The position numbers and the translations under genes were made by a program. From Candidatus Nomurabacteria bacterium (GTDB lineage: Bacteria; Patescibacteriota; Minisyncoccia; Phycocordibacterales; SBAW01), in contig CALQZS010000001.1 of assembly GCA_943349945.1 (NCBI GenBank), positions 130,803 to 194,802 on the forward strand: a stretch of 64,000 nucleotides of DNA, read 5' to 3'. A model generated the notes under the pieces. The model was not told the DNA's origin and did no database searches. It saw nothing but the letters and a program-made list of their open reading frames with translations. Below are positions 16,303-42,319 of the stretch, one piece after another; position 1 is the first letter of the stretch, and each line of letters begins with the position of its first letter.

Positions 16303-16345
16303 ATAGCTTTAGTATATAATAGTATATACTAAACTATAATAATAT
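16297..16345. promoter_or_regulatory. divergent promoter region with TAGTATATA direct/inverted repeats (candidate operator)
   Basis: ttagtatataatagtatatactaaactataataatattagtttagtatat lies between the SOUL (-) and fasciclin (+) starts. It contains a 12-bp inverted repeat atatactaaact/agtttagtatat. Confidence 0.35.
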
Positions 16346-16393
16346 TAGTTTAGTATATGCATTAACAATATTTAATCAATTTAAAATAAATAT

Positions 16394-16795
16394 ATGCAAA
16401 ATATCGTAGAAACAGCTGTCGCAGCAGGATCATTTAAAACACTGGTCACTGCAGTGCAAGCGGCAGGATTAGTAGACACTCTATCTGGTGCAGGTCCCTT
16501 CACTGTATTTGCTCCAACTGATGAGGCTTTCGCCAAAATTCCAAAAGAGACTCTCGACGCAGTCCTTGCGGATAAAGCAAAGCTAACATCTATACTTACG
16601 TACCATGTGGTGGCAGGAAAAGTAATGGCTTCTGATGTAATGGGCCTGACTTCTGCAAAGACAGTACAAGGTGATGAAGTTAAAATAGAAACTGCAGATG
16701 GAGTTATGGTAAACGACGCCAAAGTAGTACAAACAGACATAGAATGCACAAACGGAGTAATCCATGTCATCGATTCAGTCTTGATGCCAAAATAA
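16394..16795 (+). CDS. fasciclin (FAS1) domain protein
   Basis: Typical FAS1 H1/H2 motifs ([10 protein letters not shown]...[11 protein letters not shown]). Confidence 0.8.
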
Positions 16796-16814
16796 ATACA
16801 TCCGAAATAAAAAT

Positions 16815-16844
16815 AAAAAACTCTAACTTTTGTTAGAGTTTTTT
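16815..16844. terminator. bidirectional rho-independent terminator
   Basis: aaaaaactctaacttttgttagagtttttt, with A-run and T-run on both sides, between convergent genes. Confidence 0.6.
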
Positions 16845-16855
16845 ATTTTTATTGA

Positions 16856-17245
16856 TTAGGCGTCTATTTTTGCCGCAAGAATAAAATCATTTTGAGAGAG
16901 TCCGTTAATTGCATGGGTGGACAGCGTGAGCTCTACAAATTTGTAGTTTTTCAGATATATGTCCGGATGATGCCCCTCTGATTCAGCCAAAACGCCAACC
17001 TTATTTACAAAAACAAGAGCTTCATTGAAGTCCTTAAAACTATATCGCTTGGCGATACTTTTAGCATCAAGCGAAATATCCCAGCCGGGAATTTGCTTGC
17101 ATAATATATCTGCCTCTATCTTTGAAAAAGGAATGACACCACCATCGCATGCCATGCATTTTTGTTGAGTCAGTGGCGAGTTAGTTTTAGGAGTAGGGGC
17201 CTGACTCTGTATAGTTGTATGTTCCATATGCTTGTAGTATAGCAA
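16856..17245 (-). CDS. phhB: 4a-hydroxytetrahydrobiopterin dehydratase (PCD/DCoH)
   Basis: EGHHPDI...ELTLSTHA motif. Confidence 0.8.
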   Translation of the reverse strand: MLYYKHMEHTTIQSQAPTPKTNSPLTQQKCMACDGGVIPFSKIEADILCKQIPGWDISLDAKSIAKRYSFKDFNEALVFVNKVGVLAESEGHHPDIYLKNYKFVELTLSTHAINGLSQNDFILAAKIDA

Positions 17246-17268
17246 AATTAAGAATGGCTACAAATTTT

Positions 17269-18939
17269 TTATTTCGTATCAATATGATTCCACGCAAAAC
17301 CCTTGTCTCCATACACTTTTTTACCTGGGTTTAAAATAGCAAGCGGGTCAAAAATATCTTTTGTCTTTTCAAAGAGACGTACGATCTCAGGGGTAAACAT
17401 CTGCGAAAGGTACGAGGTACGTAAAAGTCCGTCATTATGTTCTCCAGACATAGAACCTCCATACTGAAATACGAGAGTATAGACTTCATCCATGAGTGTA
17501 TGGAGAGTCTCAACTATTCCTTCTTTATGAATGTCAATAAGCGGAATAATATGAAAGTTTGCATCTCCCATATGTCCGGCCACAGTATAAATAAGATCAT
17601 ATTTCGAAAAAATAATTTCAAGTTTGGGAAGAAACTCCGGGAGATCTTTTGTGTGTACGACAATATCATCAATTGTGGGTGCCGTTCGATACCCTCGCAA
17701 CTTCTGGCGAAGCAGGTTGAAGCTTTCGCGCCTGAATGTCCAATACTTTTTTGCTTCTTGTTCCGAGTGCGTCAATGTAATAGGAAATCCGAATACCTTC
17801 ATCTCGTTATATGCTGACTGTACCTGCTCTGCAACTTCTTCTTCAGTATCCCCTGCAAATTCTGCCATGAGAATTATCTTTGGAACTCCGCCAGTGATTG
17901 CCATCCAAAACTCAGGCAAAAATTGGAACCCGAGCGTCAACATAGTACCCCCCATGCTTTTTGCAATTGAACCAAAGAATTTAATCGCTATTTTAAACGT
18001 ATGATCATCATAAGATTCGATGGTTTCAGGTGTATGTTTTAAAAGTCTTGGAATTATTTCTCCTAGTTGCGTTGTGGCTGGCAAAAACATAACGAGCATT
18101 CTGGAATGTTTTTTGGGGACAATTCCACTCAATGTCGCTTCAGTCACACAGGCAAGGGTTCCCTGACTGCCCACAACGAGCTTTGATAGGTCAAATACTC
18201 CTGATTCTTTATCGTAGACATTCCAAAGATAGTACCCTGAAGAATTTTTTGTTACTGTCGGTTTTGCTTGTTGCAGTACATCATAGTTGTCCTTTACAAG
18301 GGCAAATATCTCTCGATGAATGCGCCCGCTTTCAGTTTGTTCTTCGCATTTTGCGATAAGTTTCTCTGCATGAAGTGGTTCTAGAACATCTTCTTCTCCA
18401 TTTGCAAATACAACACGAAGCGAGCGAACATACTTTTCCGTCTTTCCATAGGTAAGTGTCTTTTCACCTCCTGAGTTATTAGAGACAATACCTCCAATCG
18501 CAGCCAAATCACGAGACGCCGGATAGCTTGGCAAAAGCCAGCCGTGCGCAAGAGTCTTTTTCTCAAAATCACTATAGTATACCCCCGGCTCTGTTATGGC
18601 TTCTGTGTCGGTGACAGAAAATACATGATTCATGTATCTCATTGTGTCTACGACGATGGATTCCGAAAGTGGGCCACCGGTCATACAGGTACCGGCGGCA
18701 CGCATGGTGAGGGATAACGGTACACCCTGATCTATATCTTTAGTTTTTTTTGCATGCACATAAGCAACAAGTTTTGCAATGTCTTCTTTACTTTTTGGGT
18801 AGACAACAATGCGGGGTTTTACATAAAAAAGGCTTGTGTCTCGCGCAGCTTTTTCTCGATCACTGTCTAAGATAGAAATATCTCCTTTGATTATTGTACG
18901 CAAATCACCAGCGACATCCGTATAAAAAATTTCATTCAT
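17269..18939 (-). CDS. FAD-linked oxidase (D-lactate dehydrogenase/glycolate oxidase GlcD-like)
   Basis: 556 aa with an FAD-binding PCMH domain and an FAD-oxidase C-terminal domain. Confidence 0.8.
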   Translation of the reverse strand: MNEIFYTDVAGDLRTIIKGDISILDSDREKAARDTSLFYVKPRIVVYPKSKEDIAKLVAYVHAKKTKDIDQGVPLSLTMRAAGTCMTGGPLSESIVVDTMRYMNHVFSVTDTEAITEPGVYYSDFEKKTLAHGWLLPSYPASRDLAAIGGIVSNNSGGEKTLTYGKTEKYVRSLRVVFANGEEDVLEPLHAEKLIAKCEEQTESGRIHREIFALVKDNYDVLQQAKPTVTKNSSGYYLWNVYDKESGVFDLSKLVVGSQGTLACVTEATLSGIVPKKHSRMLVMFLPATTQLGEIIPRLLKHTPETIESYDDHTFKIAIKFFGSIAKSMGGTMLTLGFQFLPEFWMAITGGVPKIILMAEFAGDTEEEVAEQVQSAYNEMKVFGFPITLTHSEQEAKKYWTFRRESFNLLRQKLRGYRTAPTIDDIVVHTKDLPEFLPKLEIIFSKYDLIYTVAGHMGDANFHIIPLIDIHKEGIVETLHTLMDEVYTLVFQYGGSMSGEHNDGLLRTSYLSQMFTPEIVRLFEKTKDIFDPLAILNPGKKVYGDKGFAWNHIDTK

Positions 18940-19154
18940 ACATTTATTATAACATTATCGGACTCATTTTACTTAGCGTTTGCTTCGAGTTTTTCTTCGC
19001 TGTATATACCAGTACACATAGAGAGAAAGTAGAAGGATTATATTCGGAATAAATATGATTGGTTGACCCCAGGATATTCCATTGATATGGAAGTCTGAAA
19101 TCGGCCACAAAAAAGGCGTTGGGAAAAAGGCAAAATCGTGTGTAGGTATATCAA

Positions 19155-19445
19155 CTAAAATATGAAGTGGCCACGCGAGCGTAAGCTTGGCAAAATGCTT
19201 TTTGCCAAGAATAACGCATAAACGACCAAGCTATGAGTAATACCATAGACGGTGAAGACGTACGGCGGAATCGTTTCTAAGCTTGGCCGACCCATTGCGC
19301 CACCAGAAACTAGATTTATTATAAAAAGAGGCGCGAACGCCAAGAGGTCTGGCCCTATACCAAAGAGAAATGCAGTCACATAATCCCGCCTGCGCATGCG
19401 ACCAAATGCAACACCTCCATATAATCCGTGAGAGATAATGTCCAT
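19155..19445 (-). pseudogene. possible truncated/frameshifted membrane-bound metal-dependent hydrolase (DUF457-like) remnant
   Basis: 96-aa ORF MDIISHGLYGG.... Additional hydrophobic reading frame continues after the stop in 18960-19150, with an overlapping alternative frame at 19231-19449. Confidence 0.3.
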
Positions 19446-19473
19446 ACATTTATTATACTATTTGTATGTGAAA

Positions 19474-20934
19474 TTATTTTTTAGACAGATACTCCTTTGC
19501 AATTTTTAAATAATTTTCTTTTTTCTTTTTTTCCATCTTATCAAAAAGTCTCGGCATCATCGATAGTCGATGATTACTTGTGAAAAAGTCACGGTGACTA
19601 GCTATGAAATTCCAATACAGTGCAGTCCACTTCTCTTCCCAATCGCCACCAGTATAATCTGACATTTTTTTAATGTAATTGCTACCCGAGATATATGGTT
19701 TGGTAGCAAAAATACCACCATCAGCGAACTGACTCATCCCATATACATTTGGTACCATTACCCAATCATACGCATCAACATACATTGCCATAAACCATTG
19801 ATACACATAATCGGGATTAACCTGAGAAAGCAACATAAAGTTACCGATAACCATCAATCGTTCGATATGATGATTGTATCCATAGTGCAGAGCTTTCTTG
19901 ATAGCGCTGTCGACCGGAGCAATACCAGTATCTCCAGTCCAAAATCCTATTGGCAAGTTGCGGGAATGTTTCCAAAAATTCTTCGTGCGCATGACGGCAC
20001 CATCACACTCATAGGAAGCGCGCATAAACTCACGCCACCCAATGATCTGTCGTACAAAACCTTCGAGTGAATTTATAGGTATAGCGTGAGTATCTGCATA
20101 TACTATTGCACTATCGATTACCTGCCTTGGGTCGAGCAATCCAATATTTATGAGAGCTGACAATGTAGAATGAAAAAGCCGTACGCTTTTCGTAGAAAGC
20201 GCGTCCTCATACACACCAAAATCTGCAAAGCGGTCTTCTAAAAATACCTGCAAAAATTTTTTGGCATCCTTGTGTGTATATGGTAGCCAGCAGGCTATCT
20301 CTCCATATTTTTCAGCTTGTATTGTATCGAGCCACTTCTTCATTTTTGATACATCAAAATCATTTTCAAAAACAGTATCCTTGGGGAGAGTTGTATCTCG
20401 AGCAAGTTTTTTTCGATTGTCTGCATCAAAGCTCCACGCTCCCCATCTGGGCTTTCCATGTCCGTCCATCAAGATACCCAAGTCCACTCGAATTTTCTTG
20501 TAGAACATCGCCATATTTTTCTTTGAGCTTTTGTATCTTGCTATTGATTCCTCCTTTGGCAAAATAAAAAGTGGTGACTCATACCAAACCCGCTTTATCT
20601 TGGAAGCTGTTATAGCCCGCTCCAAATAGAAGTCAGTAGTATCGACAATATGAAGTTCTTGTATCCCTTCTTTTTTTAAATAATCAAAAATATCTTTCGT
20701 CTTCGGATACTGTTCAATCGTCAGGCATTTTACTTTGTACCCCTCTTTTTTCAAAAGCTCTGCATATGCGCCCATACTTAATTTGTGCAAAATTAGCTTT
20801 TGATAATGAATGGGGTTGTGCGACAGAATCAAGGGCTCTTCAATCAAAAAAATAATCCGTGCTTTTTGTATAGCCGGTGATTTTATAAAAAGTTGATGAG
20901 GATAGACCAATGTTGCTTCTTTCATAGTATTCAT
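19474..20934 (-). CDS. cryptochrome/photolyase-related protein (COG3046-type)
   Basis: 486 aa with GWREF and NHHIERLMVIGNFMLL motifs, in an AT-rich gene. Confidence 0.8.
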   Translation of the reverse strand: MNTMKEATLVYPHQLFIKSPAIQKARIIFLIEEPLILSHNPIHYQKLILHKLSMGAYAELLKKEGYKVKCLTIEQYPKTKDIFDYLKKEGIQELHIVDTTDFYLERAITASKIKRVWYESPLFILPKEESIARYKSSKKNMAMFYKKIRVDLGILMDGHGKPRWGAWSFDADNRKKLARDTTLPKDTVFENDFDVSKMKKWLDTIQAEKYGEIACWLPYTHKDAKKFLQVFLEDRFADFGVYEDALSTKSVRLFHSTLSALINIGLLDPRQVIDSAIVYADTHAIPINSLEGFVRQIIGWREFMRASYECDGAVMRTKNFWKHSRNLPIGFWTGDTGIAPVDSAIKKALHYGYNHHIERLMVIGNFMLLSQVNPDYVYQWFMAMYVDAYDWVMVPNVYGMSQFADGGIFATKPYISGSNYIKKMSDYTGGDWEEKWTALYWNFIASHRDFFTSNHRLSMMPRLFDKMEKKKKENYLKIAKEYLSKK

Positions 20935-20937
20935 CTA

Positions 20938-21204
20938 TCAGGTTGATAGTATTAAAATCAAAATAGCGAAGTATACGATCAGATAAAAACGATAGAAATT
21001 AATCACCCGCAACTCTGCACTCTTCGTGCGCTGATGAAAGCCAAAAAGCACTTTGATCTCCTCCCAAAAAACGGGCTTTACATTAATCCACCAGCTATCA
21101 GTTTGATAGACCATCTTCCTAAATCGACTGCGAAACAATCCCAAAGGAAAACTCCAGATAAAAAACGCAACGATGGCAATCGTGTGTATGGTTATAGTAT
21201 CCAT
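20938..21204 (-). CDS. small membrane protein (translationally coupled to photolyase-related gene)
   Basis: 88 aa, two TM segments, with its stop 3 nt from the downstream start. Confidence 0.4.
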   Translation of the reverse strand: MDTITIHTIAIVAFFIWSFPLGLFRSRFRKMVYQTDSWWINVKPVFWEEIKVLFGFHQRTKSAELRVINFYRFYLIVYFAILILILST

Positions 21205-21325
21205 TTATGCCTCTTCAGTCCTTACTTCTATTATAAACTTTATTCTCTCAAGAGCTACCATTCCCTCCCCCTCCTTTTTGCGAACCTCGACCTTCAGGGG
21301 CAAAAGATACTTTGGCCATAAATTT

Positions 21326-22225
21326 TTACTCCACCGGACAGGTGTTTTTGCCCATCGCGGCGTAGAACCCACACCAGCTAAATATTGCTTCAAAGAATGC
21401 AAGGCCGGAGAAGAAGATGAGGATGGGGCTCCAGGTGGTGGTGATGGCCCATAGGAGCAATGCAATGCCAATGGCGAGGCGGACGAGTCGGTCGGACTTG
21501 CCGATATTTTTAGCAACTCCACGCACAGAGTTTTTAGCAACCTTTTTCAAAATCGCGCGGTAGACGAAGCCCACGATGAACGCAAGAATATATATAATGA
21601 CAATCAGTCCCCACCCAAAGGGCGAGAGGATAAAGCCGATTGGCGATTCGTTAAAAAAATCCTTTTTAATCTGCGGGATGAGCGTGAGTGCGTTTAAGCC
21701 TTCTTTGCCGTCAAACTTCTCTATCTCACCGATGGCGAGCGAGTACTTGCTGTCGTTGTTGGGGCTTGTCACACGGATCTCGTAGATGCCTACATCAGCA
21801 CGCGCTTTATACTCTGGTCCTTGCCAGTAGGTGTCGTAGCCAAATGGTTCAAAAAACTGTTTCCATGCAAATGTCGCGCCATCGAGCACGGCGATTTGCT
21901 TGCCGTCTTTTAGTACCACAGCGGAGACATCTTTCTTTTGCCCTGCAATGTCTGGCACCAAGACTCCGACATACAGATTAAACGCTTGCTTCGCATCTAT
22001 AGTATATACATCCGGCTCGCCCATGAGCTTGCCATAATATGCTTTGGAAACTTCGGGGTCAGTAACTGATGTAAGTCTATCCTCTGTAATTCGAGGCTGA
22101 TGTGCGGAAGCCAAGCTCGGAGTCAACGTAAATATAGAGACAAACAACGCAAGCAGCGTGAGTGATAGTAGTTTGGAATTTATGTTATATCCGAAAACGT
22201 TCAAGATGCACCTAGTATACAGCAC
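21326..22225 (-). CDS. secreted protein with C-terminal DUF2892-like transmembrane domain
   Basis: Signal peptide plus a C-terminal RLVRLAIG...SWCGFYAAMGKNTCP motif. Confidence 0.5.
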   Translation of the reverse strand: MLYTRCILNVFGYNINSKLLSLTLLALFVSIFTLTPSLASAHQPRITEDRLTSVTDPEVSKAYYGKLMGEPDVYTIDAKQAFNLYVGVLVPDIAGQKKDVSAVVLKDGKQIAVLDGATFAWKQFFEPFGYDTYWQGPEYKARADVGIYEIRVTSPNNDSKYSLAIGEIEKFDGKEGLNALTLIPQIKKDFFNESPIGFILSPFGWGLIVIIYILAFIVGFVYRAILKKVAKNSVRGVAKNIGKSDRLVRLAIGIALLLWAITTTWSPILIFFSGLAFFEAIFSWCGFYAAMGKNTCPVE

Positions 22226-22230
22226 CTAGT

Positions 22231-22599
22231 CTAGAAGTAAGGGATGAGTAAACTAAGTCCCTTCCCCATCAGAAAGCTGTATATCAGCAACCCAATGAAC
22301 GGTAGAGGCACCAGCCATAAAAACCATCTTGGATGGTCAGGTTTTTTTGAAAAAACCATGTACCAATTCAACGCAAATATAAGAGGTGTACAAATTGACA
22401 AGAGAGCACTTGTACCAAAACCGAGCAGTCCAAACACTTCCCCACTACTCCATACGAAAGAGTCGTCCTGCACAATAAACAAAAAGGCTACGCTCGACCA
22501 AACAACAGCTATTAGAAACACCTTTACTAAAAGCGCTTCGTAAATTCCAATAGCAGCCAAAACTATTTTTACAGGCGTGTTGATGGTGAATCTATGCAT
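22231..22599 (-). CDS. hypothetical membrane protein
   Basis: Start moved to ATG 22597-22599 (MHRFTINTPVKIV...), because the track ORF's N-terminus overlaps a tRNA on the same strand. Confidence 0.45.
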   Translation of the reverse strand: MHRFTINTPVKIVLAAIGIYEALLVKVFLIAVVWSSVAFLFIVQDDSFVWSSGEVFGLLGFGTSALLSICTPLIFALNWYMVFSKKPDHPRWFLWLVPLPFIGLLIYSFLMGKGLSLLIPYF

Positions 22600-22627
22600 G
22601 TAGGTAATTATATACCCATAACCGTTG

Positions 22628-22714
22628 CGGAGAGAGCGAGATTCGAACTCGCGGGCCCAATTAAGGGCCGACAGTTTAGTAAACTGTTGATTTAAACCAC
22701 TCATCCATCTCTCC
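22628..22714 (-). tRNA. type II (long variable arm) tRNA, Ser-like, anticodon apparently ACU
   Basis: Acceptor GGAGAGA/TCTCTCC, T-arm GCGAG-TTCGAAT-CTCGC, variable arm GGCCC-TTAATT-GGGCC, and anticodon stem ACAGT/ACTGT with loop TTACTAA. Confidence 0.7.
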
Positions 22715-22926
22715 ATATATTCGCACTGCTCAAATGGAGCTGCTCGGCGCAGATCGATGGAATCGTGGTCGGCACATGGTGCCGGCTTGAGAAGAAGCAG
22801 TTCTTCTCTTCGCCCATCTCATCCATCTCTCCTTGCCCTTGAGGATACTACAGTATATAGAGGAGCTCAATTAAAGCCTTTTTGAGCGTGTAAAGTAGCC
22901 CCTATTATGGTACTGTGGCGTGTATT

Positions 22927-23011
22927 GGAGACGTGTCAGAGTGGTCGAATGTGCCTCCTTGCTAAGGAGGTAGGGCGCAAGCCCTCGTGGGTTCGAATCC
23001 CACCGTCTCCG
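22927..23011 (+). tRNA. tRNA-Ser (GCU)
   Basis: Acceptor GGAGACG/CGTCTCC, anticodon loop TTGCTAA between CCTCC/GGAGG, long variable arm, and T-arm GTGGG-TTCGAAT-CCCAC. Confidence 0.85.
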
Positions 23012-23049
23012 CAAAGCTAAATTTTGATATATTCTCCTATCTAAATTTT

Positions 23050-23230
23050 GCTTATGTGTGAACGGGAGAGGGATTCGAAGGACGGAAGAAAAGCTCTGGG
23101 AGAGCTTTTCTGAGTCGGGGTCGCGAGATTTTTCAGCAGAAAAATACTTGTGACCGAATCCCACTGTCCACAAATACTACGCGGCGTAGAATTGAGTCGA
23201 AGCCGAATCGTTTTAATCGTCTCCGCTTAG
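23050..23230. repeat. degenerate tRNA-end fragments (possible att-site scars)
   Basis: gggagagggattcgaagg resembles the end of the minus-strand tRNA. gaccgaatcccactgtccaca and atcgtctccgc resemble the 3' end of tRNA-Ser(GCU), TTCGAATCCCACCGTCTCCGCA. Confidence 0.35.
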
Positions 23231-23298
23231 TTTTTTGTAGTGTTCTACTGTAGAGCATTTTATGTGGTATAAACAAGCCATATCATTAATTTTTTAAT

Positions 23299-23931
23299 AT
23301 GTCTCGACAAACGATATTAATATTAGTCCTTATTGTTTTGGTGGTTGGCGTAAGCGGGTATTGGTATTTTAGTCACCAAAGCAAGGTTACCGACGTACCT
23401 ACAGAGGTGGTTGCAACGACAAATACTACCCATGTAGAAGAAGTAAAGGTGGAAAATAATCGAAAAAGTGCCGTAACGTCTAATGGTTTGGAATTTGACC
23501 CGGCTAAGGTACAGCCCGGGGAAAAATTCGGTGCGTTTACAGTTATTGCTTCGAGCGCTTATACGATTGGCGATGAACACTCTTACTCAGTAAGTTTCAA
23601 AGGACCTGTAAATATCCAGGGTGTATTAAACAATTTTGAGCCTAGTATGTGTGGTGCAGTACTGGAGATTTCTACATCAACTTCCGAAACCTTGCCTAGA
23701 GTGAGCGGTGAAAAGGTGGGGAGCATGAATGTATACCTTGACCTAGATGGTTTGCCAGAGGCAGAGCGTGTTACTTATACGAGCGCCGGTTTTACAACCC
23801 CTTCCGGGCAACTACTCCAAGAGGGTGATGTGTTAGAAGTAACTGTTGATACGTTTTTGGCTTCGCACCAAGGGAAAGATTGTAGCGGCAAGAGGATACA
23901 GGTCACCTCATTTAAGAAGCTTTCTATCTAA
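23299..23931 (+). CDS. hypothetical secreted/membrane-anchored protein
   Basis: 210 aa with an N-terminal TM/signal anchor. Confidence 0.5.
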   Translation: MSRQTILILVLIVLVVGVSGYWYFSHQSKVTDVPTEVVATTNTTHVEEVKVENNRKSAVTSNGLEFDPAKVQPGEKFGAFTVIASSAYTIGDEHSYSVSFKGPVNIQGVLNNFEPSMCGAVLEISTSTSETLPRVSGEKVGSMNVYLDLDGLPEAERVTYTSAGFTTPSGQLLQEGDVLEVTVDTFLASHQGKDCSGKRIQVTSFKKLSI

Positions 23932-24022
23932 CTGCGCAGCAAAATAGAAAACTTCGCCTCAGTACATATTTGTGACCGAGTCTCACTCTCTCTCCGCCAT
24001 ACATATACAACTTTTTTAAGAG

Positions 24023-24075: not shown

Positions 24076-25257
24076 ATGAGCAACATCAATAGACCAAAAA
24101 TAGGTCGCTACGTAGCCCAAAAAGAGGGGTTCAAATCCTTCACCCCTTATGACTTTCCACCCAAGGAAGGCTTTGTTATTAGTCCTAAATTGTATAAAAA
24201 ACTTGAGGATGCGATTCGACTAGTCGGCAAGCTTGACGGTATCACTCGCCTGCTACCCGACAAAGACTTCTTTCTTCTTATGTTCATCAAAAAGGACGCC
24301 GCCTATTCAAGTCAAATAGAAGGCACCAAAGCTACCCTACAGGATGCCGTGGCGGCACCAGTTACAGAAGAAAAATCACGTCGACATCCTGATGTAGATG
24401 ACATAGTCCATTATGTTGAGGCCGTAAACTATGGCATCAAACGAAGCGAGACACTCCCTATTTCTCTGCGGTTAGTACGAGAGATACACGAGAAGTTAAT
24501 GACAGGTGCACGCGCCACACAACATGCCTATCCTGGCGAATTTAGACGTTCCCAAAATTGGATTGGGGGTAAAATTCCTCAAGATGCCTCCTTTGTGCCA
24601 CCTGCGCCGCACGATATGGACAAATCACTGGATGATTTGGAAAAATTCATCCATGCAAAAGATGATTACCCCTCACTTATAAAAGCGGGTCTTTTGCATG
24701 CCCAATTCGAAACAATTCACCCATTTACAGACGGCAACGGACGTACAGGACGCATGCTTATTGCTATGTACATGCACCACACAAAACTTCTTGAATTACC
24801 TATATTGTATCTATCTAGTTACTTCAAAAAGTATCAAAAACTCTACTACCAAAAGCTTCAGAATTACCATGAGGAAGATTCCGATATAGAAGGTTGGCTA
24901 GAGTTCTTTCTTGAAGGTGTTGCTGAAATTGCTGAATCTTCAATCGAAACCTGTACTAATATCACAGCCCTTCGAGACCGAGACTTTGCGAAAATGCAAA
25001 AACTTGGCAAACAGTCTGCTGAATCAACACTCGAAGTGGTGCGCAAACTCTTCAGCCAACCAATAGTCGGGGTTGCAGAAATAATAAATTGGACTGGGTT
25101 TAGCCCACAAGGGGCGTACAACATGATTGAGCGACTTAAAGCTCTAGGAATTCTAGAGCCTCTTGGTGATGCAGAATATGGACAAAAATACATCTATGCA
25201 GACTACTACAGGCTCTTTGATGATACTTTTAATACAACAAAAGTAAGCAAAAAATAG
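24076..25257 (+). CDS. fic: Fic family protein (AMPylator/adenylyltransferase), class II with N-terminal inhibitory motif
   Basis: Active-site HPFTDGNGRTGR (HxFx(D/E)GNGRxxR) and the inhibitory helix motif SSQIEG ((S/T)xxxE(G/N)). C-terminal wHTH-like region. Confidence 0.85.
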   Translation: MSNINRPKIGRYVAQKEGFKSFTPYDFPPKEGFVISPKLYKKLEDAIRLVGKLDGITRLLPDKDFFLLMFIKKDAAYSSQIEGTKATLQDAVAAPVTEEKSRRHPDVDDIVHYVEAVNYGIKRSETLPISLRLVREIHEKLMTGARATQHAYPGEFRRSQNWIGGKIPQDASFVPPAPHDMDKSLDDLEKFIHAKDDYPSLIKAGLLHAQFETIHPFTDGNGRTGRMLIAMYMHHTKLLELPILYLSSYFKKYQKLYYQKLQNYHEEDSDIEGWLEFFLEGVAEIAESSIETCTNITALRDRDFAKMQKLGKQSAESTLEVVRKLFSQPIVGVAEIINWTGFSPQGAYNMIERLKALGILEPLGDAEYGQKYIYADYYRLFDDTFNTTKVSKK

Positions 25258-34116: not shown

Positions 34117-36378
34117 ATGGAGCTTGCCGACCTGCTTACCCAACACTTCCGCCTGAGCGAGCCACACAGGCAAGCGCTGCACAAGCTCGGCATACACAGC
34201 ATTGGCGACCTTGTGCACCACTTCCCCTCTCGCTATGAGGCGCCAGGCAATGAGTCGGCCATTGCGGGGCTCACTCTTGGCATGGACGCAGCCGTTACCG
34301 GGGTACTAGAAAAATTGGAGACAAAAAAGTCGTGGAAGCGGCGCATCCCCGTGTCGGAAGGATATTTGCGTGACAGCAGCGGACACATCAAGCTGATGTG
34401 GTTTAACCAGCCATACATAGCCAAGATGTATATGGACGGCACGACGGTGCGTGCCACGGGCAAAGTGTCGGGCTCGGCCGGAAAACTCTACCTCGCCAAC
34501 CCGCAGCTGGAAAAAGTTTCTGCTACAGAAGACGAATTGTTTACGGAGCAGCAGCATCCTGAAGAAAATGGTCTGGCCTCGCTTGCCCGACGTCCCGGCT
34601 CGCCGGGACTTGCGGGCGACGAGGAGAACCGAGGACCTTTTCGGAAGGATGCTGCTGCGAAGTTGTTCGCCGTCTATCCCGAAAGCCGCGGGGTTACATC
34701 GCTGTGGCTACGGCACGCAATACAAAAAATACTCTCCCACTCTGTACAAGGGTTACCCTTGGTAGAGCAGGTGCAAGACCCCATCCCGCCCGAGATTTTA
34801 AAACGCTACAACCTCCCCACCCTTAAAGCCGCTTTGGTGTGGATCCACACCCCCGAAAAACAAAAAGACGCCGACGCGGCGCGCAAGCGCTTTGCCTTTG
34901 AAGAAGTTTTTTTGATCCAGCTCGAGCGCAGGCAAGAGCGCATGCGCGCACTGCACGAGCAAAGCTTTGCGGTGGATGCACCGCCCCAGGCAATTGCCGA
35001 GTTTATGCAGACCTTCCCCTTTGCGGCAACGGGTGCGCAGCAGCGCGCGGTCGAACATATATTGACCGACATGCGCTCCGGCCAACCTATGTCGCGCCTG
35101 CTCGAGGGCGACGTAGGCAGCGGCAAAACTGCAGTAGCCGCCACCGCCGCATACGCGGCGGTACGCACACGCCCCACAAACCAAAACTTCGGCACACTCC
35201 AAGTAGCCTACATGGCGCCCACCGAGATTTTGGCCAAGCAACATTTCGAGTCGTTTATAAAATATTTTGTCCCCTTCCCCATAAACATCGGACTCATCAC
35301 CGGCTCGGGCTGTTTTAAATTCCCCTCTAAAGCGAGGCGAGGCGAAGCCACCACCATCTCGCGCACGCAACTGCTCAAGTGGGTGGCGGGGGGCGAAATT
35401 CCAATTTTAATTGGCACGCATGCACTTATTGAAAAGGCAGTGCAGTTTAAACACCTGAGTCTGGTGGTGATAGACGAGCAGCATCGCTTTGGCACCAACC
35501 AGCGCAAAAAGCTTGCCCGCAAAAACGGCGACGCGCGGATCCCCCACCTTCTTTCTATGACCGCCACCCCAATACCCCGCACCTTGGCGCTGACCGCCTA
35601 CGGCGACCTAGACCTGACGCTACTCGACGAGATGCCCGCAGGCCGCAAACCAATTATTACGGAAATTGTAAAACCCACAGAGCGTTCGCGAGCGTACGCA
35701 AAAATGCACGAGCAGCTGGCGGAAGGTCGCCAAGCGTATGTGATTTGCCCGCGCATAGACGAACCAGACCCAGAAAAAGCATTCGCTCTTCAAGCCAAGT
35801 CTGTCACCGCCGAGGCCAAGCGACTTAAAAAAGAGGTCTTCCAACAATATGAACTTGCGATATTACACAGCAAGATGACCCCAAAAGAAAAAGACGAGGT
35901 TATGGCGCGCTTTGCCCGGCACGAGATAGACATCCTGGTGGCCACGTCTGTGGTCGAGGTGGGGGTCAACGTGCCCAACGCGACTATGATCTTTATCGAA
36001 GGTGCCGAGCGTTTTGGCCTAGCCCAGCTGCACCAGCTGCGCGGGCGCGTGGTACGCTCCAACCACCAGGCATACTGTTTTGTCTGCCCCGAAAGCCGCG
36101 GAGAACATACACTCGCAAGACTCAAAGCCTTGGTAACGGCAAAAAATGGGTTCGAGTTGGCCGAGCAGGACTTGATGCAGCGCGGCCCCGGCGAACTTTC
36201 GGGCCGCAAACAATGGGGCATCTCGGACATCGGCATGGAAGCGCTTAAAAATATAAAACTGGTAGAAGCGGCACGCACTGAAGCGCTCAACATAATAGAA
36301 ACAGATGCCGAGCTTGGGCACTACCCACTCCTTAAAGAGGCACTTGCCCTAAGGGCCAAGGCACTACATTTCGAGTGA
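34117..36378 (+). CDS. recG: ATP-dependent DNA helicase RecG
   Basis: 753 aa with a wedge domain and helicase motifs (GDVGSGKT, DEQHRFG). Confidence 0.9.
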   Translation: MELADLLTQHFRLSEPHRQALHKLGIHSIGDLVHHFPSRYEAPGNESAIAGLTLGMDAAVTGVLEKLETKKSWKRRIPVSEGYLRDSSGHIKLMWFNQPYIAKMYMDGTTVRATGKVSGSAGKLYLANPQLEKVSATEDELFTEQQHPEENGLASLARRPGSPGLAGDEENRGPFRKDAAAKLFAVYPESRGVTSLWLRHAIQKILSHSVQGLPLVEQVQDPIPPEILKRYNLPTLKAALVWIHTPEKQKDADAARKRFAFEEVFLIQLERRQERMRALHEQSFAVDAPPQAIAEFMQTFPFAATGAQQRAVEHILTDMRSGQPMSRLLEGDVGSGKTAVAATAAYAAVRTRPTNQNFGTLQVAYMAPTEILAKQHFESFIKYFVPFPINIGLITGSGCFKFPSKARRGEATTISRTQLLKWVAGGEIPILIGTHALIEKAVQFKHLSLVVIDEQHRFGTNQRKKLARKNGDARIPHLLSMTATPIPRTLALTAYGDLDLTLLDEMPAGRKPIITEIVKPTERSRAYAKMHEQLAEGRQAYVICPRIDEPDPEKAFALQAKSVTAEAKRLKKEVFQQYELAILHSKMTPKEKDEVMARFARHEIDILVATSVVEVGVNVPNATMIFIEGAERFGLAQLHQLRGRVVRSNHQAYCFVCPESRGEHTLARLKALVTAKNGFELAEQDLMQRGPGELSGRKQWGISDIGMEALKNIKLVEAARTEALNIIETDAELGHYPLLKEALALRAKALHFE

Positions 36379-36531
36379 CAAGAAGAAAGGGATTTCCCCT
36401 TACAGGGGCAGTACAGGTCTCGTATCGCACTTCATAAACTTTATGCGATATACTCGACCTTTTCAATCCCTGCACATACAGTGCATAGGCACTGTATTCG
36501 CGCCAATACTCGCTATGCTCGTTCTATTGTG

Positions 36532-36603
36532 TGGGCGCGGCAGGGATTGAACCTGCGACCAGTCGTGTATAAGACGACCGCTCTACCACTGAGCTACGCG
36601 CCC
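36532..36603 (-). tRNA. tRNA-Ile (UAU)
   Basis: Acceptor GGGCGCG/CGCGCCC, D-arm GCTCAGTGGTAGAGC, anticodon stem GTCGT/ACGAC with loop CTTATAC, and T-arm GCAGG-TTCAATC-CCTGC. Confidence 0.75.
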
Positions 36604-36681
36604 GTGCTTCATACTCTATCTCAAACTAGGTCTTCATGCTATCCTGCCGGAGGTATCAACAGTACACAAGGAGGACTACCC

Positions 36682-37599
36682 ATGAAAGCTCCAAAAAGGC
36701 GTCTCCAGCACGTCCTCGAAGCGCAGCAGTTCGGGAATGACCCAGAGTTGCTGGGCGAAGTCTTCAAGTTGGCCCAATTCTTCCAAAAAGGAGGAGAGAG
36801 CGACTGCATGCGGGGTAGAATACTCGCGTCGCTCTTTTATGAGCCCAGCACGCGGACAAGACTCTCTTTCGAATCTGCTGCACTCAGACTGGGCGGCGGT
36901 GTCATCGGCACAGAAAGTGCCGAGCAATTCTCCTCGGTCGTCAAAGGCGAATCGCTACCTGACACTATCCGCATTATAAGTGCGTATGCGGATGTTATCG
37001 CACTGCGACACAAAGACAACAACGCCGCAGAAGATGCCGCTCGGGTAGCCACCGTACCCATCATCAACGCCGGCTCCGGTGCACACCAACACCCGACCCA
37101 AGCCCTGCTCGACTTGTACACCATCGAGCAGGAATGCGGTACGTTTGAAGGACTCACCGTAGCCTTTGTGGGCGACCTCAAACACGGTCGCACAGTGCGG
37201 TCGCTGGCGTACTTGCTGGGCAAGTTCCCGCAAAGAAAAATCGTCTTCTCTTCACCTGTGGACTTGCGTATTGGCAAAGACATCAAAGACTATCTCGACG
37301 AGAGAGGCGTCCAGTATGTCGAGACGGACATACTGGGTACCGAAGTACTACAAGCAGACGTGGTCTACATGACCCGCATGCAGACAGAGCGGCACGCCAG
37401 CACACACAACAGAGACTACAGCCAGTTCCATTTGACTGGCCGGGTAGCTCGGTCTGTGCGAGGCGCCATACTGCACCCGCTGCCGCGCAATAGCGAACTC
37501 GACCCGGTGATAGACACTCGCCCGAATGCAGCGTACTTTCGCCAAGCGCGAAACGGACTCTACGTCCGGATGGCGCTACTGCACATCCTCTTCGCCTAA
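36682..37599 (+). CDS. pyrB: aspartate carbamoyltransferase catalytic subunit
   Basis: STRTR, HPTQALLDL and HPLP motifs. RBS aaggagga. The start was re-called because the track ORF runs through the tRNA. Confidence 0.85.
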   Translation: MKAPKRRLQHVLEAQQFGNDPELLGEVFKLAQFFQKGGESDCMRGRILASLFYEPSTRTRLSFESAALRLGGGVIGTESAEQFSSVVKGESLPDTIRIISAYADVIALRHKDNNAAEDAARVATVPIINAGSGAHQHPTQALLDLYTIEQECGTFEGLTVAFVGDLKHGRTVRSLAYLLGKFPQRKIVFSSPVDLRIGKDIKDYLDERGVQYVETDILGTEVLQADVVYMTRMQTERHASTHNRDYSQFHLTGRVARSVRGAILHPLPRNSELDPVIDTRPNAAYFRQARNGLYVRMALLHILFA

Positions 37600-37648: not shown

Positions 37649-37709
37649 ATCGCACAATATTTTTTGCTATGGTAGGCTTTTGGGCAGACGAACAACCCAG
37701 GAGCAGAAC

Positions 37710-38714
37710 ATGATACTGCGCAACATCGACTTTGGCCCCTGCTTGGATGCAGCCGGCACGAGGGGATTTTTTGGCCGGGGATATCCAGCGCATCGGATCC
37801 CGGTCTTAGGACCTTGGCTGTGGAACTTTACCGGCTCGACCTTTGTGGCGAAGACCACGACCACGCCCATACAGTACGGCAATATGCCGCTCAGGGGCAG
37901 CGAGTATGACTTCGAGCCCGAAGGTTGGTTCCCTCAGTGCATTTGGTCAGACATGCAGGACCAAATAGCACTAAACGCGGTCGGCCTCTCGGGCCCAGGC
38001 GCGTACCAACTGATGGCGCAGCAAAAATGGCAAAAGCATAAAGAGCCATTTATGGTGTCGTGGGCGCCCGTGGGGCCAGAAAAGGAGTGGGAGGCTCAAG
38101 CGCGGAAGTTTGCATACAACTGGGACATATACATGTCCGGGCAAAAGCTACAGGTCGGGCTGCAGGTCAACATAAGCTGCCCCAACACAGGCACAGACCT
38201 TGCAAGACTTGTGCAACAAACACACGTGCTGCTCGATATCTTGCGCAAACTCTGCATACCACTTGTCGTCAAGCTGAATTTGCTTGTCGACCCTGCCCGC
38301 GCAGTCGAGATCTCAGAGCACCCTGCGTGCGACGCTCTGTGTGTCTCGAACACCATACCCTTTGGGGAGTTGCCCAATGAGATAGATTGGGATCAATTCT
38401 TCCCTATCGGCTCGCCGCTCGTACGACGCAACCCCGCCTTTGGTAACGGTGGACTCTCGGGCAAGCCGTTGTTGCCGTTGGTTATCGAGTGGCTGCGGCA
38501 CGCTTTTGACGCCGGGCTCAAAAAGCCAGTCAACGCCGGCGGCGGCATACTCGAAGCCAACGACGTCGACTTTTTGGTCGAAAACGCATCTCTTCGACCA
38601 GGCATCGACTCGATATTTATTGGGTCGATAGCAATACTCAACCCGCTGGGCATCCGCTCGACCATACGCCGTGCACACAAACTGCTTGGATCACAAAAAC
38701 CCGCCTCAACATGA
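37710..38714 (+). CDS. pyrD: dihydroorotate dehydrogenase family protein (divergent class 1 PyrD-like)
   Basis: FGPCLDAAG and NISCPNTG motifs. RBS aggag before ATG 37710. Confidence 0.6.
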   Translation: MILRNIDFGPCLDAAGTRGFFGRGYPAHRIPVLGPWLWNFTGSTFVAKTTTTPIQYGNMPLRGSEYDFEPEGWFPQCIWSDMQDQIALNAVGLSGPGAYQLMAQQKWQKHKEPFMVSWAPVGPEKEWEAQARKFAYNWDIYMSGQKLQVGLQVNISCPNTGTDLARLVQQTHVLLDILRKLCIPLVVKLNLLVDPARAVEISEHPACDALCVSNTIPFGELPNEIDWDQFFPIGSPLVRRNPAFGNGGLSGKPLLPLVIEWLRHAFDAGLKKPVNAGGGILEANDVDFLVENASLRPGIDSIFIGSIAILNPLGIRSTIRRAHKLLGSQKPAST

Positions 38715-38747: not shown

Positions 38748-40727
38748 TTAGAAATCGACCACCACCGGCTTTGGTTCTATGTCTTGCTTCTTTTTTGGGG
38801 TGATGCCGTGGGCTATGAGTATAGTCTCAAACTCCTCGCGCTCGAGCGTCTCTACTTCTACCAAGCGCTCGGCTATAGCATCCAGTACTTTGCGCTGGTG
38901 GGTAATGATGTCGTGCGCTTTTTTGTATGCACCGTCTATGATGTGCTTGACCTCTGCATCAATCTCGCCCGACACCTTTTCGGAATACTCGCGGCCATCC
39001 ACCCCCGCACCAAACATAGCGCGGCCGCCGTCGCCCACCAACGCAATAGTGCCCACTTTGTCGGACATACCCCAACGGGTCACCATGTTGCGTGCCAAGT
39101 TGGTAAGCACCTGTATGTCGTTTGAAGGGCCAGTGGTGACGTCGCCAAAGACCTCTTTTTCGGCAACATAGCCACCAAGCGACATCGCGATATCATCCAA
39201 AAACTCTTTTTTGCTCTGCATGCGCTTGTCTTCGAATGGGAGCTTGAGGGTGTAGCCCGCTGCGCGGCCACGAGAGATGATGGAGATTTTGTGCACAGGG
39301 TCGGCGTAGGGCAACACGGACGCAACGAGCGCGTGCCCTGCTTCGTGGTATGCGGTTATCTCTTTCTCGCGGGCGTTCATCACGTTGGTCTTGCGCTCGG
39401 GGCCAAGCATCACCTTTTCTATAGAGCGGATGAGGTCGAACTGTGCGACGGTTTTGCGGTTTTCGCGTGCTGCAAGGATGGCAGCCTCGTTCATCAGGTT
39501 GGCCAAGTCGGCGCCACTAAACCCAGGCGTGCGCTCGGCTATGACGGCCAAGTTTACATCTTCGGCCAGTGGCTTTTTGCGCGCATGGATGTGCAAAATC
39601 TCGACGCGGTCTTGGCGGTCGGGCAGGTCTATCATCACGCGACGGTCAAAGCGGCCCGGGCGCACCAGCGCTGGGTCCAAAACGTCGGGGCGGTTGGTTG
39701 CAGCCATCACAATTACCTTTTCGTTTGGCTCAAAGCCGTCCATCTCGACCAGTATTTGGTTGAGTGTCTGCTCGCGTTCGTCGTTGCCCCCGCCTACACC
39801 CGTGCCGCGCACGCGGCCCACGGCATCAATTTCGTCGACAAAGATAATAGCGGGTGCTGCGCGCTTGGCTGTCAAAAAGAGGTCGCGCACACGACTTGCG
39901 CCCACACCCACAAACATCTCGACGAACTCCGAACCCGAGATAGAGAAGAAGGGCACCCCCGCCTCGCCCGCCACCGCGCGCGCAAGCAAGGTCTTGCCTG
40001 TGCCGGCTGAGCCCATCAACAAAATACCCTTGGGGATGCGTGCACCAATGTCCAGAAACTTCTTTGGGTTTTTAAGAAAGTCGACAATCTCCAAAAGCTC
40101 TATCTTTGCTTCTTTGGCGCCTGCAACATCTTTAAAGGTTACGCGCGAGCCCTTGTCGTTGGGGTCGGTTACTTTGGGGCGGCTTTGCCCAAACGAGAAT
40201 GCCTGCATCCCCGCCCCCTTTACTTGGCGCGAGAGATACCAGACAAAAAACGCAATCAAAAGTAGCGGCACCAAAAACGGCGCAAGCGCGGTGAGCCAAA
40301 ACTGCCACGAGCTTTGGCGCTTGATAGTAACCTCTACTTTGTCGAGTGCCTCTTTAGAGACGCTGTAGTTGGTGAGTGTTTGCGACAGCGCGGCGTCTGG
40401 CTCTTTTTTGGATACCTTTTCTATTGCCTCGGCGCCCTCGGATTCGGGGACATAAGTGATGGTGAGGTCGTTACCGTCGACAAGCACCTTGGACACAGTG
40501 CCTGCTTGGATGTCGGCCGCCAATTGCGAGATAGGTATGTCGACGGGCTTTTTTTCATCGCTAACAAAGTAGGTGTACGCACCCGCCAAGAGCATCAGCA
40601 CCAACACGCTGCTGGCCAAGTTGACCCAAAACGAATCACCCTGGGGCATCTGCGGCATAGGCATGCGCGGTCCACCCTTTTTTTGCTGAGGAGATTTTTG
40701 TTCGGCCATTGCTTTACATACTAGCAT
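38748..40727 (-). CDS. ftsH: ATP-dependent zinc metalloprotease FtsH
   Basis: 659 aa with an AAA+ Walker A GSAGTGKT, the SRH, and the HEAGHA zinc motif. Confidence 0.95.
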
Positions 40728-40777
40728 CTACCCTGCGGTGGAGCAAAAAGAATTTCTAATCGTGGTATATTCAGCTC

Positions 40778-41239
40778 GTGAGCCTTATAGAAAGTAAAAA
40801 AGCCCGGCTAAACTATGACATCCTCGAGGAATTTGAGGCGGGGTTGGAATTGGTGGGTAGCGAGGTAAAGAGTGTCCGCGCCGGCCACGGCAAGCTCGAC
40901 GGTGCACATATTATTGTGCGCCCCACCGCGCGCGCAGGGGGCCTAGAGGCATACGTGGTGGGCATGTCTGTGCCTCCATACCAAGCCACCAACACCCCCG
41001 CCGACTACGAACCCGAGCGCACACGCAAACTCCTGCTGACTAAAAAAGAATTGCAAACGTTGGCCGGGTTTGAAAAGCAGAGCGGCTTGACAATAGTGCC
41101 ACTTTCGGTGTATAATAAAGGGAGAGTACTGAAGCTGCGTTTGGCGGTAGCCCGCGGCCGTAAGAAATACGACAAGCGCGCCGTCTTAAAGGAAAGAGAC
41201 ACCAAGCGCGACATACAAAGGCTAAAACGACAATTATGA
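40778..41239 (+). CDS. smpB: SsrA-binding protein SmpB
   Basis: 153 aa, typical SmpB. Confidence 0.9.
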   Translation: MSLIESKKARLNYDILEEFEAGLELVGSEVKSVRAGHGKLDGAHIIVRPTARAGGLEAYVVGMSVPPYQATNTPADYEPERTRKLLLTKKELQTLAGFEKQSGLTIVPLSVYNKGRVLKLRLAVARGRKKYDKRAVLKERDTKRDIQRLKRQL

Positions 41240-41590: not shown

Positions 41591-41656
41591 GGCTAAAACG
41601 ATTACCATGCAATCGTTCGCCCGAACAAATCTTGGCACAAGATTTGTTTTAGGGGG
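41591..41656 (+). repeat. direct repeat copy 2 (duplicated smpB 3' end remnant) abutting ssrA
   Basis: ggctaaaacgattaccatgcaatcgttcgcccgaacaaatcttggcacaagatttgttttaggggg. Confidence 0.5.
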
Positions 41657-42018
41657 ATGCCAGGCCTAGACAATGAAGACGCCTGTTGAATGCGCGCAGT
41701 AGAAGTCTGGACCTTCTTAAAAATCCGGAAACAATAACTGCAAAAAACAGTGTTTCGCCGTATTTCGCGGCGAACGACTTCCAGTTCGCGTTCGCGCGAG
41801 CGTAAGTCGCATCTACCCTTCCTCTCTCTTGCGGGTTGGGATAGGTGTTATATAGCAAGAGTATAGTTGCAAGAGCCGCTCTGACTTGCATCCGAACATA
41901 AGAGCTGCAGGAAGTTATGATTTCGTTTGCTTTGCCCATAACAGCCTAAAGAAACAACAAGCGAACTACACTACGTAGAAGCTTCAGCAGCACTTCATTG
42001 CACGGCGGTTCAATTCCG
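41653..42018 (+). ncRNA. ssrA: tmRNA (ssrA)
   Basis: 5' GGGGAUG pairs with 3' CAUCUCC-A, including a G3:U wobble. T-arm GGCGG-UUCAAUU-CCGCC. The tag ORF GCG GCG AAC GAC UUC CAG UUC GCG UUC GCG CGA GCG UAA encodes (A)ANDFQFAFARA. A terminator follows. Confidence 0.8.
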
Positions 42019-42319
42019 CCCATCTCCACATAAAAATAAAACGCGCCCATAGTTGGGTGCTTTTTATTTTCCCTGTCACCTCTGCCCCACTCGGCGAGTT
42101 GTCATAAGTGTCTAGCAATAAAACAAACACACCATGGAACACTTGAGTTAAGCCGAGGAGGCTGCCACCCCAAGGGGACGCGGCCTCCTCGGCGCACATG
42201 GTGCGTTTTGCACCCCTGTTTTTTGCATATGCACACAGATGGTGGTATGTTCAAAAAACGTACAGCGTTTGTTTGTTACGTACTGCACGTCCTAACTCAA
42301 GACTATTTGGGGAAAGCCG

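Follow-up and report, generated by a model that had tools for sequence, protein, structure and literature searches.

A conserved tRNA-Ile(UAU) downstream of ftsH suggests TilS-independent decoding of AUA in a large clade of the Candidate Phyla Radiation

Most bacteria read the isoleucine codon AUA with a tRNA that carries C34, the cytidine being converted to lysidine by TilS; a UAU anticodon, on the other hand, pairs directly with AUA. TilS is regarded as near-universal, essential and bacteria-specific, and it is discussed as a drug target. In Mycoplasma mobile, a UAU tRNA-Ile reads AUA without TilS: the isoleucyl-tRNA synthetase (IleRS) is a type-1 enzyme that depends on Arg865 for this function, and misreading of AUG is avoided by competition from tRNA-Met together with discrimination by the ribosome (PMC3575796). 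Bifidobacterium and Neorickettsia are tilS-less as well, and have a tRNA-Ile(TAT) alongside an IleRS of the eukaryotic type, i.e., type 2 (PMC3575796). In Bacillus subtilis, a suppressor of tilS proved to be the G34U change in tRNA-Ile1 (Fabret 2011; Kohrer 2014; PMC3919564). In 2013, Taniguchi et al. (PMC3575796) listed nine species from three clades with UAU tRNA-Ile and no TilS, tRNADB-CE holds 19 species with UAU tRNA-Ile genes (tRNADB-CE paper), and a 2026 preprint still speaks of TilS-free AUA decoding as ‘rare cases’. Here, we analyze a tRNA-Ile(UAU) gene in a 64-kb stretch of DNA from a Candidatus Nomurabacteria bacterium (64,000 nucleotides, hereafter the window), which belongs to the Candidate Phyla Radiation (CPR). 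We consider it probable that the gene represents TilS-independent decoding of AUA, of the kind described for M. mobile, and that this state is fixed in a large CPR clade.

ARAGORN called the gene as tRNA-Ile with anticodon tat at 36531-36603 on the minus strand, and Rfam RF00005 matched 36603->36532 over model positions 1-71 of 71 with 74.0 bits (E 2.5e-14; gathering score 29), a 74-bit match that was reproduced when the small region alone was scanned. All helix positions of the Rfam alignment are standard pairs, with zero non-canonical pairs flagged. Read on the minus strand, the tRNA is GGGCGCGUAGCUCAGUGGUAGAGCGGUCGUCUUAUACACGACUGGUCGCAGGUUCAAUCCCUGCCGCGCCCA. Its anticodon stem is GUCGU/ACGAC and its loop is C-U-U-A-U-A-C, in which U34-A35-U36 is flanked by C32, U33, A37 and C38. 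The initial annotation of this DNA had named the same anticodon, loop (CTTATAC) and stem (GTCGT/ACGAC), with no strand given, and direct reading of the minus strand, ARAGORN and Rfam bear it out. The 72-nt gene fits the tRNA model without insertion, and there is no intron beside the anticodon. The discriminator is A73; CCA is not encoded by the gene, the genome reading on as CAC. ARAGORN assigns identity from the anticodon alone. Of the E. coli isoleucine identity set, reportedly described by Nureki et al. in 1994, C4-G69, U12-A23 and C29-G41 are present in the window copy. A GTG-started open reading frame (ORF) that runs over the tRNA (36481-37599) is an artefact, since the real start of pyrB is the ATG at 36682 behind a GGAGG Shine-Dalgarno sequence; the tRNA gene overlaps no real coding sequence.

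To survey the locus in relatives, we took the 80 GTDB species representatives with the best FtsH matches, each with flanks of +-10 kb (individual loci carry L numbers below). Almost all are Patescibacteria/CPR, the closest being labelled Minisyncoccia, Taylor-, Nomura- or Kaiserbacteria, or Paceibacterota. The NCBI class Minisyncoccia (Paceibacteria in GTDB) includes Minisyncoccales, Phycocordibacterales, Moranbacterales and others. A tRNA with anticodon tat is present in 31 of the 80 loci, mostly 60-120 nt downstream of ftsH and on the same strand; recG lies beyond it on the opposite strand in several relatives (e.g., L006 and L008). Where these 31 loci bear names, the names are Taylor-, Nomura-, Kaiser- and Jorgensenbacteria, Paceibacterota, and Minisyncoccia or Minisyncoccales metagenome-assembled genomes (MAGs) only. 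In an alignment of the 31 copies (A1), C32, U33, U34, A35, U36, A37 and the discriminator A are invariant; at position 38, the core clade has C and five of the eight early-branching copies have A. RNAalifold recovered the cloverleaf from the 31 copies, with compensatory, two-sided changes at 17 of 21 stem pairs. This conservation of the cloverleaf through two-sided pair changes shows that the gene is selected as a tRNA, and rules out a pseudogene, a chance match and a recent import.

In a neighbour-joining tree of FtsH, all loci with the UAU tRNA fall in one clade, with the Moranbacteria-type group that carries TilS nearby and outside it; the sole clade member without a detected UAU tRNA is L025, whose contig ends right after ftsH. 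The 25-taxon core to which the window belongs and the Moranbacteria-type group each have a bootstrap of 100/100. A single switch after the split from Moranbacterales would be the simplest, i.e., the most parsimonious, reading of this tree, and is not robustly resolved by one protein.

The acceptor stem of these tRNAs shows a further peculiarity. Twelve of the 31 copies (L009, L010, L012, L013, L015, L017-L022 and L029) begin with C1-G72, not the usual G1-C72, a start pair that is unusual for bacterial elongator tRNAs and RNase P substrates.

The SGGxDS PP-loop motif of TilS occurs in no frame of the 64-kb window. Among the relatives, an ORF with the signature SGGxDS...AHVNY ends just before ftsH in 11 of the 80 loci, and a hidden Markov model (HMM) made from these 11 TilS ORFs found a twelfth locus (L079) and nothing further among the loci. 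The 12 TilS loci (L027, L028, L032, L037, L043, L044, L058, L066, L067, L068, L070 and L079) come from Moranbacteria-type genomes, Doudnabacteria, Kazan, Peregrinibacteria, a Patescibacteria single-cell genome and Chloroflexi. They served as positive controls, scoring 269-456 bits with the TilS HMM, and NCBIfam TIGR02432 gave 143-197 bits on the five TilS ORFs scanned with it (cut-off 93.6). The UAU tRNA is found in none of the 12 loci that have tilS directly upstream of ftsH. The UAU-clade DNA amounted to 589 kb in 33 sequences, i.e., 32 FtsH loci and the window, and a six-frame, filter-free HMM search of it found neither TilS nor a remnant (best E 2.4).

Gene order provides stronger evidence for loss of tilS than this null search. 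In the tilS-bearing loci L027, L032, L037 and L043, the order is gyrA(-), a small ORF(-), an MBL-fold gene(-), an S1-domain gene(+), in some a nucleotide kinase gene, tilS(+) and ftsH(+). The early-branching UAU loci L035 and L055 have the same row through the S1-domain gene, followed by ftsH, tRNA-Ile(UAU) and tRNA-Val, and L071, whose contig begins at the S1 gene, shows S1 followed by ftsH. The spacer left between S1 and ftsH in the early-branching UAU loci is 110-180 nt. This comparison indicates that the genomes with the UAU tRNA are exactly those in which tilS was deleted from its conserved place in the operon. The region upstream of ftsH was rearranged further in the core clade, where a divergent smpB and the tmRNA gene are found in the window and in at least 10 core loci; the tmRNA gene adjoins ftsH in L005, L006, L009, L011, L021, L026, L031, L054 and others. 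Loss of tilS, which the initial annotation had raised as a possibility, is thus strongly suggested for the window's lineage by its absence from the window, from the clade loci and from the ancestral slot at ftsH, and stays short of proof. Two further observations bear on tilS in the wider group. A homologue search with the TilS of L032 returned, as its 120 best matches bearing names, Moranbacteria or the unspecific ‘Parcubacteria group’, and this says nothing about more distant clade members. A partial annotation of Minisyncoccus archaeiphilus, covering a part without ValRS and ftsH, has zero entries for lysidine, tilS, K04075 or PF01171, which is not conclusive.

As an observation in its own right, the row gyrA(-)/small ORF/MBL-fold(-)/S1(+)/(tilS)/ftsH occurs in L027, L032, L035, L037, L043, L047 and L055. 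Since Moranbacteria-type loci have it in common with early-branching loci of Paceibacteria, it can usefully serve as a marker of synteny in this region of the CPR tree.

The partner of TilS, a tRNA-Ile with a CAU anticodon, was sought in the same DNA. The window encodes no tRNA-Ile(CAU), its tRNAs being Ser-ACU, Ser-GCU and Ile-UAU only, and no CAU tRNA of any kind is found in the 31 UAU loci, in L025 or in the window. Three tilS-bearing CPR loci (L032, L043 and L044) have a CAU tRNA downstream of ftsH. We take its anticodon arm in L032 and L044 (GCGAC-UCAUAAU-CGC...) to match that of E. coli ileX, and that of L043 to be closer to B. subtilis tRNA-Ile2. In the Chloroflexi loci, a CAU tRNA of this kind stands directly upstream of tilS, beside an initiator tRNA. 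The order in L032 is tRNA-Val, tRNA(CAU), and that in the early-branching UAU loci is tRNA-Ile(UAU), tRNA-Val. This shared slot suggests that the UAU tRNA arose in place from tRNA-Ile2(CAU), its C34 having become U; such an in situ origin is plausible, not shown.

As to the meaning of AUA, we compared the ftsH genes from 32 sequences of the UAU clade with 47 outside orthologues, using the columns that are well conserved in the latter. Of 117 aligned AUA codons, 87 fall on Ile (74%), 16 on Val, 12 on Leu and 0 on Met. AUU and AUC give the same aligned-residue profile as AUA, and AUG aligns with Met at 123 of 181 positions. AUA columns are thus those of isoleucine and never of methionine, which means that AUA stands for isoleucine and is not reassigned. 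Together with the two independent detectors that return a tRNA with a UAU anticodon, this alignment would indirectly assign isoleucine identity to tRNA(UAU), in agreement with the initial annotation.

AUA is also freely used. In the window it makes up 19.6-20.8 per 1000 codons and 32-33% of Ile codons, with 19.6 per 1000 and 33% in the crude ORF set and 32% in 20 window genes with family assignments; in tuf and the ribosomal-protein operon, where AUC is preferred, its share is 16%. Across loci the AUA share drops as GC content at third codon positions (GC3) rises. UAU loci lie +0.084 above the common GC3 regression (t 4.3), a statistic that overstates independence because the loci are phylogenetically related. 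The window has an AUA share of 0.327, compared with 0.116 expected from the line of the non-UAU loci (z +2.8 in units of the residual standard deviation), i.e., ~3x the GC3 prediction in a genome of ~50% GC. AUA frequency, which the initial annotation had proposed to look at, is therefore far above what GC3 predicts from tilS-bearing relatives. The frequency of AUG does not differ between UAU and non-UAU groups.

In summary, these observations show a genuine, conserved tRNA whose structure is kept by selection, a tilS gone from its ancestral slot in UAU-bearing genomes, and an AUA codon that means isoleucine and is freely used. A mechanism that would join them is as follows. The window tRNA would be a dedicated decoder of AUA, acting through a genomic U34 and plain U-A pairing. 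After the Moranbacteria-type lineage branched off, the ancestor of the clade would have lost tilS from the slot between the S1-protein gene and ftsH; thereafter the UAU tRNA would have stood in the cluster just downstream of ftsH, where the tilS-keeping L032 has its ileX-like CAU tRNA. Both tilS and tRNA-Ile(CAU) would then be absent from the whole genome. IleRS would have to accept U34, probably as a type-2 (archaeal/eukaryote-like) enzyme. No IleRS gene is found in the window or the fetched loci, where ORFs of at least 700 aa at UAU loci encode RecG, GyrA, ribonucleotide reductase, Mg-ATPase and unknowns. In M. archaeiphilus, a cultured member of the class, IleRS (MNSC_03180) is annotated with PF00133, PF19302 (DUF5915) and PF08264 and with no zinc-finger domain, and its best eggNOG hit is from a spirochaete (Treponema); PF19302 is, we presume, the C-terminal domain of type-2 IleRS. 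tRNAs that read ANN codons normally carry t6A (N6-threonylcarbamoyladenosine) at A37, tsaD is annotated in M. archaeiphilus, and A37 of the UAU tRNA would likewise bear t6A. Misreading of AUG would be limited by competition from tRNA-Met and by the ribosome, as in M. mobile, or by an unknown modification of U34. More speculatively, the A/U-only codon-anticodon helix combined with the derived C38 of the core clade might reflect a tuned affinity for the A site.

Several points weigh against this reading. C29-G41, an identity pair of E. coli IleRS, is present in the window copy and not conserved across the clade. A promoter scan found no sigma-70-like promoter directly upstream of the tRNA, its sole promoter-like match lying downstream; since the consensus may not fit CPR, this absence is not counted against expression. 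Monophyly of the whole UAU group has a bootstrap of 32/100 on FtsH, mainly because of the unstable taxon L052, which has only 1.7 kb downstream of ftsH, and for this reason a single origin is claimed as the most parsimonious reading only. Identities to the 31 UAU tRNAs are 0.63-0.67 for CAU tRNAs and 0.58-0.66 for tRNA-Val, and those of all classes (CAU ileX-like, Met, Val, Lys and others) overlap at 0.54-0.67, so that tRNA similarity was rejected as undecidable for the question of origin and the synteny argument alone remains. Lastly, tilS could have moved elsewhere in the genome. With genomes of ~0.6-1 Mb, ~0.7 randomly placed tilS genes would be expected by chance in the 589 kb searched, which makes the lack of TilS matches outside the ftsH slot weak evidence, and the null statistically not strong. 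The DNA covered is ~6-10% of the window's genome and ~2-3% of that of each relative. These figures would leave room for a redundant decoder, with tilS and tRNA-Ile2(CAU) elsewhere in the genome and the UAU tRNA as a parallel reader of AUA, and both systems are indeed kept in Lactobacillus casei/plantarum, Cyanothece and Ferrimonas (PMC3575796). We nevertheless judge such redundancy improbable, though not negligible: tilS is missing without remnant from the S1/tilS/ftsH slot exactly in the UAU genomes, there are zero CAU tRNAs in the 31 UAU loci, L025 and the window, the tRNA cluster that contains the UAU tRNA contains, in a tilS-bearing relative, the ileX-like CAU tRNA, and AUA usage is raised.

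A variant of TilS-independent decoding would have U34 modified, to pseudouridine as in eukaryotic tRNA-Ile-PsiAPsi, an xm5U-type base or something new, so that pairing would be restricted to A and IleRS would gain a determinant. A bare U34 is expected to wobble onto AUG, and the invariant C32-U33-U34-A35-U36-A37 with the derived C38 of the core clade would suit enzymatic recognition of the loop. Against such a variant, CPR genomes encode few modification enzymes, and no candidate enzyme gene linked to the tRNA was found in the window. Taniguchi et al. left the possibility of modification open for M. suis, whereas the sole experimentally examined case, M. mobile, is unmodified (PMC3575796). On balance, a modified U34 seems a possible but rather doubtful addition. 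That the tRNA has another identity, with AUA reassigned through charging with Met, as in many mitochondria, or with another amino acid, finds a foothold in the naming by ARAGORN from the anticodon alone; it is made extremely unlikely by the 0 of 117 conserved AUA columns with Met, the 74% with Ile, the like behaviour of AUU and AUC, the invariant A73 and A37, and the pairs C4-G69, U12-A23 and C29-G41 of the window copy. Phages often carry rare-codon tRNAs, which would count for an import by a phage or mobile element, and the lack of a consensus promoter upstream would suit a pseudogene or a chance tRNA-like sequence. These readings are hardly credible given the full-length 74-bit Rfam match, the orthologues with covarying stems in 31 species-level genomes at the same ftsH-recG position, the housekeeping neighbours, and a syntenic distribution with no mobile-element context; synteny and covariation refute them.

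Taken together, TilS-independent decoding as such is known; new are the CPR lineage, its breadth and the clean synteny trail of tilS loss. A literature search limited to open-access main text yielded no paper in which lysidine or tilS is linked to CPR, Patescibacteria, Parcubacteria, Paceibacteria or OD1. The alternative strategy for AUA that the initial annotation read from the UAU tRNA is supported by the conserved tRNA, the isoleucine meaning of AUA and the tilS-less slot; its remark that such tRNAs are restricted to a few lineages calls for revision, the tRNA being fixed here throughout a CPR clade that is very rich in species. Whether most of Minisyncoccia/Paceibacteria, i.e., all sampled lineages but the Moranbacteria-type, are lysidine-free through a single ancient loss of tilS and fixation of the UAU tRNA is, in our estimate, evenly poised. 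If they are, the ‘rare cases’ of TilS-free decoding would become the rule for a major, very species-rich lineage, and a clade of thousands of species would constitute a natural experiment on the separation of AUA from AUG without a modified wobble base; avoidance of AUG misreading by an unknown U34 modification or by ribosomal adaptation would stay possible. The clade would further offer a dated, syntenically traceable case of the reorganisation path of Taniguchi et al., with tilS deleted between S1 and ftsH and the UAU tRNA after ftsH, and loss of lysidine would explain why AUA is common in these genomes at moderate GC. With M. archaeiphilus in culture, the biochemistry is open to experiment. 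The clade should be handled separately by annotation pipelines and completeness estimators in which tilS is expected or CAU/UAU tRNAs are labelled by default rules.

The features around the tRNA are listed below.

Table 1. Features at the tRNA-Ile(UAU) locus of the window
Feature	Position	Strand	Basis
recG, convergent with the tRNA	34117..36378	+	NCBIfam RecG models, up to 708 bits
tRNA-Ile(UAU) gene, 72 nt	36532..36603	-	ARAGORN, Rfam RF00005, 31-copy alignment
pyrB	36682-37599	+	NCBIfam TIGR00670, 298 bits
pyrD-like gene	37680-38714	+	weak dihydroorotate dehydrogenase matches
ftsH, syntenic anchor	38748..40727	-	NCBIfam TIGR01241, 783.8 bits
50-nt gap between ftsH and the divergent smpB; position of tilS in tilS-bearing lineages, without tilS here	40728..40777	.	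ORF map; no SGGxDS motif and no TilS HMM match in six frames
smpB, divergent from ftsH	40778..41239	+	NCBIfam NF003843
tmRNA, after smpB	41653-42029	+	ARAGORN and Rfam

The tRNA stands 2.1 kb from ftsH in the window because pyrB and the pyrD-like gene are inserted between them, an arrangement seen in the window and its closest relative L005 only. De novo pyrimidine genes are unusual in CPR genomes, and the insertion may be a recent acquisition. ARAGORN found four structured RNA genes in the window: tRNA-Ser(ACU), tRNA-Ser(GCU), tmRNA and tRNA-Ile(UAU). Other genes encode a type IV pilus, the S10-spc ribosomal protein operon, secY, map and an extracytoplasmic function (ECF) sigma factor, and the gene content as a whole (pilus, S10-spc, smpB/tmRNA, ftsH, recG and ECF sigma factor) fits an origin in Patescibacteria/CPR. 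A protein identical to the EF-Tu of the window occurs on MAGs. The recG stop and the 3' end of the tRNA are separated by 153 nt (36379-36531, minus strand), a spacer that folds at -50.6 kcal/mol (z -3.8), with 0 of 200 shuffles folding as well; it ends in a terminator-like hairpin, has no Rfam match, and is without counterpart in L005, where tRNA and recG are only 8 nt apart. The tmRNA encodes the tag peptide AKNSVSPYFAANDFQFAFARA, of which relatives share the SPYF core and differ at the end. In L006 (9531-12152, minus strand) and L008 (3565-6174, minus strand), RecG is of ~870 aa with a GxxExxY-family domain (TIGR04256) inserted mid-helicase, and L030 has an intein-containing GyrA of 1158 aa.

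Further along the window, positions 16000-24000 are low in GC (0.40-0.43, compared with ~0.52 elsewhere) and hold an FAD-linked oxidase, a photolyase-related protein (DPRP), a YgaP-like membrane protein and two tRNA-Ser genes, with a Fic/DOC protein (24076-25257) just past the edge; the stretch may be an acquired island. One of these tRNAs is tRNA-Ser(ACU), with an A34 anticodon (22627-22714, minus strand), 212 nt from the divergent tRNA-Ser(GCU) at 22927-23012. It also occurs in L011 (14871-14960, plus strand) and L012 (14169-14256, minus strand), and the anticodon loop UUACUAA is identical in the three copies while changes in their acceptor and anticodon stems are compensatory, which marks it as a conserved gene. 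A34 tRNAs besides Arg-ACG are very rare in bacteria, with a count of three for Ser (tRNADB-CE paper). If its A34 were deaminated to inosine, tRNA-Ser(ACU) would also read AGA (Arg). In the locus set as a whole, MAG labels often conflict with the FtsH phylogeny: Paceibacteria-like contigs are labelled ‘uncultured Candidatus Saccharibacteria’ or ‘Gammaproteobacteria’ (L007, L009, L014, L016 and others; L036, L046, L049, L050, L056 and L057), and L068, a Chloroflexi-like contig, is labelled as the archaeon ‘Candidatus Nitrosopolaris’. These conflicts point to mislabelling or bin contamination.

Compared with known systems, the locus resembles that of M. mobile in that an intron-less TAT tRNA reads AUA as Ile, tilS is not at its expected place, and the system evolved secondarily from a lysidine-using ancestor. 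It differs in belonging to the CPR class Minisyncoccia/Paceibacteria and not to Mollicutes, in spanning a deep, species-rich clade where M. mobile and its like are a few species, and in that AUA is common despite ~50% GC. With Bifidobacterium and Neorickettsia it would share a UAU tRNA used without lysidine, and the IleRS of M. archaeiphilus is presumably type-2-like as theirs is. The canonical pair of tRNA-Ile2(CAU) and TilS, the latter commonly in a tilS-ftsH arrangement, serves the same codon and amino acid and, in the sister lineages that have tilS-ftsH, lies in the same neighbourhood; unlike it, the window and all 31 copies have TAT in place of CAT, and tilS is neither at the locus nor in the window. 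The B. subtilis suppressor shows that one anticodon mutation to UAU can replace the lysidine system, yet it is a laboratory mutant of tRNA-Ile1(GAU), whereas the state of the clade is natural, ancient and fixed. Finally, eukaryotic tRNA-Ile(UAU), with its PsiAPsi anticodon, and the UAU tRNAs of the tiaS-less archaea Nanoarchaeum and Korarchaeum also rely on a genomic UAU for AUA; in contrast to these, the tRNA described here has no intron, carries bacterial tRNA features and stands in a bacterial context.

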